Assembly (NCBI GenBank): GCA_002633005.1 | Contig: NMRA01000010.1 | Coordinates: forward strand, 1,522,982-1,586,981 | Origin: Phoronis australis | Lineage: Eukaryota; Animalia; Phoronida | DNA length: 64,000 nt | Direction of reading: 5' to 3' | Part shown: positions 26,619 to 43,598 of the stretch, piece after piece | How positions within the stretch are numbered: the first letter of the stretch is position 1 | How the letters are laid out: each line of letters begins with the position of its first letter | Notes under the pieces: generated by a model | Seen by the model: the letters and a program-made list of their open reading frames with translations, nothing else | Databases searched by the model: none | Told to the model about the DNA's origin: nothing | Translations under genes and position numbers: made by a program

Positions 26619-26688
26619 TCACTCAATTCCTTTGGCGCGAAGTTCTTCCCTCACTCTAGCCAGATAGCCAGGATCCGGATAGCCATAC
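26619..26688 (-). CDS. Gene B terminal exon (end of Deltex C-terminal domain)
   Basis: ctgtag acceptor, phase 2; [22 protein letters not shown]; too short for the ORF track. Confidence 0.92.
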
Positions 26689-41600: not shown

Positions 41601-43598
41601 TTTTCACCTACGTTTCTTTTGATCTTCTGGTTCCCATGGAAAGAATGTCCCTCCCCCCAGTCACTATTACAGGACAAAGTCTTCCAGTTGGATATAGTGA
41701 ATATTTTTCCACAATCTGTCGGACCAGTGCGTAATATTTACACAGAGGGATCTTTATCCGTCTGAAATCCAATAACTATACATGAGGCCATATAGAAACT
41801 GGGACACAGGTAGGTATCAAGATTCTCGCCATCGATAAGGCATTAAACCAAAAAATTGTAATTAATGAGGACTCTCACAGAGAGCAGTAGTCAGTAAATG
41901 AGTCCCATCAGTTACTGTAACAAGCCAAGGACAATCTAAAGCGAAAAGAGAACGGCACTTCATTTCCTGAGCCCCATCAGTTACTGTGACAATCCAACAA
42001 TCTAAAGTGAAAAGAGAATGGCACTTCATTTGCTGAAGTTCAAGTACGAATGGGCCAACACGCAAATCTTTATAACCTGTGCAAACAGACAGTGTAACGT
42101 AGATATTAGCTCCTTCAAAAGTGACCAGAGCCTCTGATCTAGAGGCACAAAAACTGTAGTATTACCAATCGCATATTACCTCCGTGTGTATCTCTACGGC
42201 TACTACCACCTTAGTATCTGTGCCAGGGATGGAGAGTTCTTGTTTTGTGGACGCTGCCCGTTTAGCGACTGTAAGATGTAAGGAATAATTATAGTCAATC
42301 ACCCACAACTCACCAAGGTTGTACTTTGCCATCAGCTTTTATATCCCTCAAGACATAACAAACACATTGTACGTATAATTACATTGTTTCAAATACATAC
42401 CTGTATATACAAATACATTGTATACACAAATAGGTGCTCAGTCGAAAAACTAACCTTTCATTTAGAACACGTACCGATATAAGACTACCCTCAAATTGTT
42501 TTATACTCGGAAGCTTTGGATGTTTTTGGACAAGAATAACGTCTCCAGATAACGGAGCAGTGTTATTCGTCAAAATATTCAGATTTAAACCAGTGGGCAA
42601 TCCATTTACAGGATTATTTGATTACTCGACTATAGACAAATAACTAATTATACACAGTTGCGCTAACCACAGTATTCGTCAGACTTACACTGACACTGGT
42701 TGTAGTTTAAAAGGCTACCTTCCAACGCAAAAACCAACAATTGATTTAAACCGCTCATTGTTATGGAAGGCGGTGACTTTAGGACTTACAGAAAATGACA
42801 GTTTGTTTTTGCCTGAGACCAGGCGAAACAGCTTGTCATGGCGTGCCATTTTATCTTCGGGGTATGATTTATAGAAACAAAGGCCTGTCAGTTGTTTGCA
42901 AGAAATTACTTTTCGTAGAAGCAAGGAATAAGATGACACAAATTTTATAGAATTACATGTAACTGGTCAGGACAAAAAATAGCTTCTTGGACGTACGGTA
43001 ACACGGGTTGGTTTACGATGGACGTTATGTTTAATTGGGCTTGTGTACGTTCTGTCGGGTATTAAGAAGATTTAGGTACTTGCACCGGTCAGTGATGATC
43101 TGTCTCCATCCATCCATTGGTAAAGTATGAAACCGCTGAACTACAATATATCCGATTGACCTTTGGGTCTTCGTAATGTCACAGAGAGTTTTTTCAAAGC
43201 CCTTGAGGCTTGTAAAGTGCATGGAATCAAAAAAAGGAAAAATTGAAATATCGACGGTAAAATCCTTAAGCCAGGACATTGTGAGGAAGTTCGCAATGAT
43301 ATTCCCATTAAATGTGCAACCTATCTATAAAAACATGAGAGTAAGTTTGTAACTGGACTTTGATTTCAGACAGATAATAATGATTGTTGGAAAAGGAACA
43401 TGCAATAGCCGCCACCATACCTTCGTAATCATCAAATATGATCATCGCGTCATCTTTTTGTTGGTTGAGTGTCAAAGGAAAGATCACTTGGTTTACCTCT
43501 CCACCTCCATTGCTTTGCCTTTGAAAGTGAATCGTTAGCTGTTCTTTGGTGACACCTTGTGGTATACCACTGACAACGATAGCCGGTTTCTCCGCCAT
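26619..43598 (-). CDS. DTX3L: Gene B: DTX3L-like E3 ubiquitin ligase with two fused macrodomains (RRM - KH-like - Macro - Macro - RING-HC - Deltex C-terminal), about 1520 aa, complete
   Basis: Exons 43598-43421, 42268-42180, 41074-38488, 34348-33749, 33336-32510, 31806-31595, 26688-26619; all GT-AG and phase-compatible, summing to 4563 nt (1521 codons including TGA); Kozak gccATGg. C3HC4 RING, DTC motifs [33 protein letters not shown] and [20 protein letters not shown]. Confidence 0.92.
26730..28373 (-). mobile_element. Helentron/DINE-like non-autonomous element with about 4 internal tandem units of about 380-450 bp
   Basis: Unit anchors ccac..g.tggcgcaa at about 26822, 27230, 27608 and 28055; one end has AACAAG plus hairpin cgtggg..cccacg, the other has cggacgga..atgcgtcc..gggcgcat-gaaaa. 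Confidence 0.6.
29040..30330. mobile_element. Penelope-like retroelement fragment (RT C-terminus + GIY-YIG) with an inverted duplicate of its 3' end
   Basis: Minus strand: [55 protein letters not shown] (29047-29890, frameshifted). Plus strand 29906-30330 repeats the GIY-YIG region followed by the 3' UTR. Confidence 0.9.
30248..30290 (+). ncRNA. Minimal hammerhead ribozyme relic in the Penelope 3' end
   Basis: atggc-CTGATGA-a-gtcct(cgagaga)aggac-GTAA-cgta-gccat: stems I and II pair, but the core GAAA is mutated to GTAA. Confidence 0.7.
31595..31806 (-). CDS. Gene B exon: core Deltex C-terminal (DTC) domain
   Basis: [71 protein letters not shown]; tttcag acceptor, GTAAGT donor. Confidence 0.95.
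32510..33336 (-). CDS. Gene B exon: end of macro 2, linker, RING-HC, start of DTC
   Basis: ORF 32459..33376: [39 protein letters not shown] then [14 protein letters not shown]...YHFPNGTQG. Confidence 0.95.
33505..33625. repeat. Dispersed repeat, second copy at about 49830-49955
   Basis: Shared aaaaaaacggga..accactg.gaattgcg.gt.tgtgctt...ctctcagg.gcggacctttttgccca.ttcgccaaatggg. Confidence 0.8.
33749..34348 (-). CDS. Gene B exon: end of macro 1 and most of macro 2
   Basis: ORF 33723..34379: GIFGAP...[48 protein letters not shown]; 600 nt, phase 1-1. Confidence 0.95.
35603..37062 (-). mobile_element. Decayed Kolobok-type DNA transposon
   Basis: TIRs aggagaatgccaccc / gggtggcatgctcct flanked by TTAT and TTAA; minus-strand ORF remnants ([12 protein letters not shown]..., FTAY..., [10 protein letters not shown]...PQYSG) resemble the Cys-rich, P2X7-C-terminus-like second ORF of Kolobok. 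Confidence 0.65.
37292..37905 (-). mobile_element. 3' fragment of a non-LTR retrotransposon ORF2 (RTE-X-like C-terminal zinc knuckle)
   Basis: ORF 37292..37924: [46 protein letters not shown]. Confidence 0.8.
38488..41074 (-). CDS. Gene B large exon: KH-like, long Ser/Thr/acidic linker, further KH-like folds, macrodomain 1
   Basis: ORF 38462..41050 (862 aa), ending [19 protein letters not shown]...[10 protein letters not shown]...VAIPLISSG; ttccag acceptor, GTAAGT donor. Confidence 0.95.
41195..41223 (+). repeat. (CAACAG/CAG)n microsatellite in an intron
   Basis: aacagcaacagcaacagcaacagcaacaa. Confidence 0.8.
42180..42268 (-). CDS. Gene B coding exon 2 (end of N-terminal RRM)
   Basis: ttacag acceptor, GTAATA donor; 89 nt, phase 1 to 0; [30 protein letters not shown]. 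Confidence 0.8.
43421..43598 (-). CDS. Gene B first coding exon (N-terminal RRM)
   Basis: [41 protein letters not shown]...AMIIFDDYE; an acceptor just upstream (exon start 43609) implies a non-coding exon further 5' (candidate GTGAGT donor at 44359-44354). Confidence 0.88.

Follow-up and report, generated by a model that had tools for sequence, protein, structure and literature searches.

Organization of the locus

The window, the whole 64,000-nucleotide stretch of the Phoronis australis contig analysed here, contains a minus-strand DTX3L-type gene lying between two PARP14-like genes. Splicing of its seven exons yields 1520 amino acids with one stop codon, at the end, and each of the six introns has GT-AG borders and keeps the phase, confirming the intact seven-exon frame of about 1520 residues reported in the preliminary description. 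The domain order given there, RRM, KH-like, macro 1, macro 2, RING-HC and DTC, was likewise recovered, the KH-like units by profile-profile comparison and the others with Pfam; all RRM, Macro, RING and DTC matches on single exons exceed the curated Pfam cut-offs. Exon 1 (43421-43598) contains the start codon and the larger part of a PARP14/DTX3L-type RRM (RRM_PARP14_3, PF23085, 8e-08), and exon 2 (42180-42268; AG/GT borders, phase 1 to 0) its end, with stranded reads in the bins of both. Exon 3 (38488-41074) encodes a low-complexity linker, the KH-like units and the first 136 residues of macro 1 (38488-38896; Macro, 3e-13), and exon 4 (33749-34348), also covered by reads, completes macro 1 with its Gly-Ile-Phe loop and opens macro 2 with Asp1033 and Asp1047 (Macro, 2e-12). 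The end of macro 2, a linker, a C3HC4 RING (32770-32654; zf-C3HC4, 2e-11) and the start of the DTC share exon 5 (33336-32510), as had been noted from the letters alone. The DTC core with His1489 follows in exon 6 (31595-31806; DTC, 3e-31), and the DTC end with Tyr1499, Glu1513 and the stop codon in exon 7 (26619-26688; DTC, 5e-07; reads).

A profile built from relatives places macro 1 at residues 816-1004, macro 2 at 1018-1205, the RING at 1340-1385 and the DTC at 1387-1519, and a phase-1 intron splits both macros at the same position, directly before the last loop. The KH-like pair (residues 660-786; 38984-39364) matches the pair found before the RING of vertebrate DTX3L and is modelled with pLDDT 86-96; Pfam returned no KH match in exon 3 and the single-sequence HMM match is weak, the detection coming from the profile-profile match (hhalign probability 97.6%). 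A 48-row model of residues 455-951 is confident over the KH-like pair and macro 1; macrodomains lead its PDB matches, with PARP9 MD1 in second place. Single-sequence structure prediction reached a pLDDT of 37, and hhalign of the whole alignment matched the RING-DTC part and nothing else. Rfam gave no match.

Neither a WWE nor a PARP (ART) domain was matched on any of the seven exons. The combination of RING-HC with no WWE is assigned to the DTX3/DTX3L type in the available text of PMC13658767, and the chain has the features of that type, a RING-HC followed by a DTC, with an RRM and KH-like units at the N-terminus. A PDB search with exon 6 ranked DTX3L (3pg6, 3e-26) before DTX1 (7e-19) and DTX2 (2e-18). 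By its predicted domain content the gene is a DTX3L, not a PARP9. With vertebrate DTX3L (PDB 3pg6; bear sequence P0026) it shares the N-terminal RRM, the KH-like pair, the C-terminal RING-HC and DTC with equivalents of H707, Y719 and E733, the lack of a WWE and linkage to PARP14-like genes, whereas it differs in having two macros after its last KH unit and before the RING, in being twice as long and in standing head-to-head with a PARP14-like gene rather than with PARP9.

Several further elements accompany the gene. A polypyrimidine-AG acceptor lies at 43610, 12 bases 5' of the start codon, and the frame is open across it; the gene may therefore have another exon upstream, which could be coding. 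Intron 3 holds a 213-codon frame (37295-37933) that by eye resembles the tail of a LINE-type element and has no Pfam match. Intron 6 contains remains of a Penelope-like retroelement (29050-30250) with a GIY-YIG Pfam match and an inverted 270-base duplicate, as well as degenerate repeats of ~390-430 bases (26800-28400) with strand-biased RNA depth of up to about 370, which probably derives from copies elsewhere.

The head-to-head neighbour (48985-64000, plus strand) comprises RRM exons and a long KH exon, and the window ends before any macro or PARP domain; its first predicted ATG lies 5.4 kb from the DTX start. This layout (43598-48985) recalls the divergent PARP9-DTX3L pair of vertebrates. 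ISRE-, GAS- and kB-like motifs are no denser between the two genes than in the rest of the window. The downstream neighbour (3-18518, minus strand) runs off the window and consists of RRM exons, a KH exon, two macro stubs, KH8 and WWE; the stubs are the first ~33 residues of macro 1 and the first exon of macro 3, after which KH8 and WWE follow. In the interval 1450-4132 of the minus strand, the macro 1 stub ends at 4132, the first macro 3 exon occupies 3417-3302 and a possibly frameshifted macro remnant lies at 3914-3723. No other macro exons were found in this gene with six PARP14 relatives as queries; most of its macrodomain exons seem to be gone, and by eye the reading frame apparently continues intact into KH8 and WWE. 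The PARP domains of both neighbours would fall outside the window, so that it is by similarity of RRM, KH, macro and WWE domains that both are called PARP14-like. The two are paralogs in inverted orientation, and their RRM exons, about seven in each gene, form corresponding series; three of the exon pairs can still be aligned, at 75-84% DNA identity.

Catalytic motifs and transcripts

Within macro 1 the eraser features Asn847, His852, Gly853-855 and Ile953-Phe954 are all retained. They make up a MacroD-type hydrolase signature, in which Asn847 and Gly855 flank loop 1, together with His852, and Ile953-Phe954 lie in loop 2, so that by motif the domain is of the eraser type. Its N-terminal part is also odd: Asn833 stands for Asp, Asn905 for His and Asp907 for Val, leaving neither the usual Asp nor the His-Ala-Val-Gly-Pro strand, both conserved in the family alignment, intact. 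The Asp usual at position 833 is the adenine-binding residue. Asp907 is found in none of the other 261 macros among the 262 aligned. Given these three residues macro 1 may be dead, and the protein might then have lost its hydrolase while sharing the history proposed below, acting as a double reader and ligase that concentrates on ADP-ribosylated targets, an outcome that we consider unlikely but worth serious attention. Such a loss would have parallels, as the catalytic Asn is missing from the two closest hemichordate macros and repeated loss of macro activity is described for mammals in the accessible part of PMC10221186. Against it, the eraser marks (Asn, His, Gly, Phe) that are named as essential for hydrolysis in the available texts of 10.64898/2026.08.12.744356 and PMC10221186 are all intact, Asn at the Asp position is common in the family (second most frequent state, tied with Ser at 34 rows each) and macro 1 is modelled with confidence (pLDDT 90-97), the model fitting PARP9 MD1.

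Macro 2 keeps Asp1033, but its catalytic Asn is replaced by Asp1047, the His by Leu, and the aligned lid column holds no aromatic residue; judged from these residues it looks like a reader. Its Asn-Pro-Thr-Asp motif matches the terminal macros of DTX-like proteins of brittle stars. Among DTC-bearing proteins with macro matches of at least 140 profile positions, the window gene included, the eraser signature is present in 49 of 85 single macros (36 of the 85 lack it, a point in favour of hydrolase loss in macro 1), in 27 of 35 first-of-two, 5 of 33 second-of-two and 12 of 13 middle-of-three macros, counts that are not independent events since the relatives share ancestry. An eraser-then-reader order across two-macro DTX members was not found in the literature searched, which mostly left subscription journals uncovered.

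At the C-terminus, alignment with bear DTX3L puts His1489, Tyr1499 and Glu1513 where the human protein has H707, Y719 and E733. The His and Glu are named as catalytic in the accessible part of PMC10810221, and all three residues in that of the Picard preprint (10.64898/2026.04.23.720386); His and Glu are kept together in 110 of 126 macro-bearing relatives. All zinc ligands of the C3HC4 RING in exon 5 are kept. The loop before Tyr1499 is 6 residues long, a length shared by 5 of 129 rows (window gene included) as compared with 8 residues in 95 of the 129. Intron 6 was searched for a 6-base microexon that would restore the loop, and none was found. In the RNA form represented by run X4 the loop has the usual length, unlike the window copy.

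The RNA runs, X1 to X4, were assigned by species label, X4 being presumed to be RNA as a guess. Reads of the expected strand (X1-X3) lie over exons 1, 2, 3, 4, 5, 6 and 7, and reads run past exon 7 to about 26220, into a 3' UTR. The junction that matters most for a single chain, between the macro 2 exon and the RING exon (4-5), is crossed by 11 reads of X1 and 7 of X2, and by none of X3. A single X4 contig with 9 differing letters spans junction 5-6, and at junction 6-7 three X4 contigs have loose ends that correspond to exon 7 and carry two codons that the window lacks. Junctions 1-2, 2-3 and 3-4 are absent among the 15 joints listed, beyond which there are 232 further ones and among which intronic repeats dominate. 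Of the RNA support across all six junctions that the preliminary description had asked for, the three C-terminal junctions thus have it, the first from 18 reads and the other two from contigs of X4, the presumed RNA run, and the three N-terminal ones do not appear among the joints listed. In two reads of X3 a GT site within exon 5 (33290) is linked to exon 6 (31806), in frame by sequence; a transcript of this kind would lack the RING and the last part of macro 2. The joint may be noise.

The reads are mostly 82-95% identical to the window and therefore may stem from a sister population or a paralog; identity of at least 99% is reached by 1 of 914 X1 reads. Replacements account for 23 of the 40 changed codons listed between reads and window, a biased subset, and several different X4 contigs overlap exon 5. 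Divergent reads and multiple exon 5 contigs mean that the architecture is supported for the species group rather than for this exact allele. They would also suit a window copy that is a decaying or silent paralog, the reads coming from another copy, a scenario to which the short DTC loop, the odd macro 1 residues and the retroelement remains in introns 3 and 6 could be added. We hold it to be highly improbable, as a decaying copy would have to have kept 1520 open codons, six canonical in-phase introns and every zinc ligand and catalytic residue; short DTC loops, moreover, occur in other family members, and most reads from the intronic repeats likewise show 90-95% identity, consistent with a divergent population.

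Distribution and origin of macro-bearing Deltex proteins

A macro-RING-DTC profile was compared with 1.84 billion cluster representatives, and the best 150 matches were analysed. Macro and DTC occur together in 124 of these clusters, at least two macros with a DTC in 49, and the exact order of two macros, RING and DTC in 31, figures that show abundance, not frequency, since the list was ranked by the profile. The rarity that the preliminary description implied for this architecture is not supported. Like the window protein, non-vertebrate members carry macro and then RING-DTC on one chain, often with an RRM. Among 30 of the 150 clusters that were looked up, 24 could be named, and they come from a sponge, bivalves, gastropods, a brittle star, a crinoid, hemichordates, lancelets and one frog. 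Macro-bearing DTX members are found in Oscarella, Montipora, Oculina, Haliotis, Amphiura, Anneissia, Saccoglossus, Ptychodera, Branchiostoma and Ciona and in many further bivalves and gastropods, including Saccostrea and Mizuhopecten. PF01661 was detected, and confirmed by rescanning, in 12 of 120 listed relatives with a DTC (720 were found in all), among them those of Montipora, Oculina, Haliotis and Ciona, and in no vertebrate DTX among the same 120 of 720. Homologs of 2280-5000 residues gave 13 matches, four of them with macro and DTC, and exon 5 as query had no homolog among the longer proteins. Within the best 150 clusters the nearest N-termini are from hemichordates and the nearest macro pairs from Amphiura and one other relative; the protein collection held no close relative of the window gene, the best macro identity being 44%. 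One sequence from Pelobates cultripes (P0238) joins a PARP14-type MD1-MD2 to a partial DTC, a join that reflects either read-through in the annotation or a genuine chimera in a vertebrate.

The window gene thus adds to a widespread and barely described kind. Macro-bearing DTX3L proteins are not mentioned in the available texts of PMC13224862, PMC11251020, PMC12687431 and PMC13658767. Their sole source in our search, which subscription journals mostly escaped, was the Picard preprint (10.64898/2026.04.23.720386), the accessible part of which refers to 'the macrodomain' in one sentence, with its number and its eraser or reader type undiscussed; the same search returned nothing on multi-macro DTX3L or on its biochemistry.

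The origin of the two macros was addressed with an IQ-TREE phylogeny of 60 rows chosen from the 262 macros, in which PARP9 is absent. In this tree a 97/95 branch parts macro 1 from PARP14 MD1, and a group of PARP14 MD2 and MD3 (99/90) excludes macro 2, which is placed, weakly (78/94), beside terminal macros of brittle stars and reader macros of molluscs. The position of macro 2 is unstable, as a larger fast tree puts it beside one Ptychodera and four Ciona macros. Constraining macro 2 to group with PARP14 MD2 gave an AU p-value of 0.046 and macro 1 with MD1 one of 0.063; the two macros, 32% identical, could be made sisters, as a recent duplication would have it, at 0.18. By these tests a PARP14 origin of the macros would be weakly rejected. 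The macro phylogeny that the preliminary description proposed has therefore given a partial answer with respect to PARP14: the best tree keeps both macros apart from it, while the AU values are borderline (0.063 and 0.046) and no PARP9 row was present. A tree of the RING-DTC part (202 rows, without a DTX1/2/4 root) had no supported set holding the window gene.

A different history would make the gene a lineage-specific fusion, in which a macro-less DTX3L captured the MD1-MD2 tandem of a PARP9 or PARP14 gene. The eraser-then-reader order is indeed that of PARP9, PARP14 MD1-MD2 is the best PDB match of both macro exons (macro 1 by itself best matches PARP14 MD1 and PARP9 MD1), the locus is flanked by PARP14-like genes, one of them without its macro exons, and the borderline AU values leave some room for a capture. 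We nevertheless judge a capture improbable. Macro-bearing DTX proteins are found from sponge to tunicate, whereas PARP9 is confined to jawed vertebrates according to the accessible part of PMC10221186; both macros have their best neighbours, by BLAST as well as in the trees, among DTX or DTX-like macros; and macro 2 shares its Asn-Pro-Thr-Asp motif with brittle-star DTX-like proteins. For these reasons the 'Rosetta-stone fusion' of the preliminary description is not upheld, and a DTX-internal origin of both macros is favoured by the sequence comparisons. The available text of the Picard preprint (10.64898/2026.04.23.720386) relates that the appearance of PARP9 coincided with macrodomain loss from DTX3L and that PARP9 took over the function. 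The macro-DTX3L architecture likely predates the vertebrate PARP9-DTX3L pair.

A predicted single-chain reader, eraser and ligase

With the architecture, the macro 2-RING splice link and the catalytic residues all in place, we lean towards an intact DTX3L-type gene, likely of an ancestral type, that kept and multiplied its own macro and whose product is predicted to bind, to ubiquitylate and probably to proofread ADP-ribosylated targets without PARP9. A PARP14-like writer, possibly the neighbouring gene, would mono-ADP-ribosylate protein or RNA in an immune response. Macro 2, having neither the catalytic Asn nor an aromatic lid, would bind the ADP-ribose mark and hold the target, the RING would recruit E2~ubiquitin, and His1489 and Glu1513 would activate the 3'-hydroxyl of ADP-ribose, giving ubiquitin-ADP-ribose. 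Macro 1, of the PARP9/PARP14 MD1 type, might then strip the ADP-ribose or the whole adduct, serving as a timer or a proofreader, and the RRM and KH units may bind RNA or a PARP14-like partner. In vertebrates, the in-cis macro would have been lost and regained in trans through PARP9. The analogy between these macros in cis and PARP9 in trans, drawn in the preliminary description, is reasonable, and the motifs fit an eraser-type followed by a reader-type macro with a Deltex RING-DTC, as in the PARP9-DTX3L heterodimer; the fusion history attached to that analogy is not supported. The window protein differs from the heterodimer in having no ART domain and in carrying its macros in cis, and in the best tree these do not group with PARP14 MD1 and MD2, the source of the macros of PARP9.

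Tentatively, and as a possibility rather than an expectation, the invertebrate DTX3L lineage may have built its own eraser-then-reader tandem, independent of PARP14 and PARP9 and kept across molluscs and echinoderms, in which case the vertebrate dimer would be a rebuilt, two-gene version of an older single chain; the macro-shedding PARP14-like neighbour would suggest that reading and erasing were handed to the ligase.

The coupling of an eraser to a ligase that ubiquitylates ADP-ribose is called paradoxical in the accessible part of PMC10810221. Natural single-chain proteins of this family would offer a way into that paradox, as their eraser and ligase activities should be separable by point mutation or domain deletion; since the window copy is one of many and has an atypical macro 1, such tests may be better done on a relative from a mollusc or brittle star whose macro 1 is canonical. 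The macro-DTX family would date the coupling of eraser and ligase to early animals, before PARP9.
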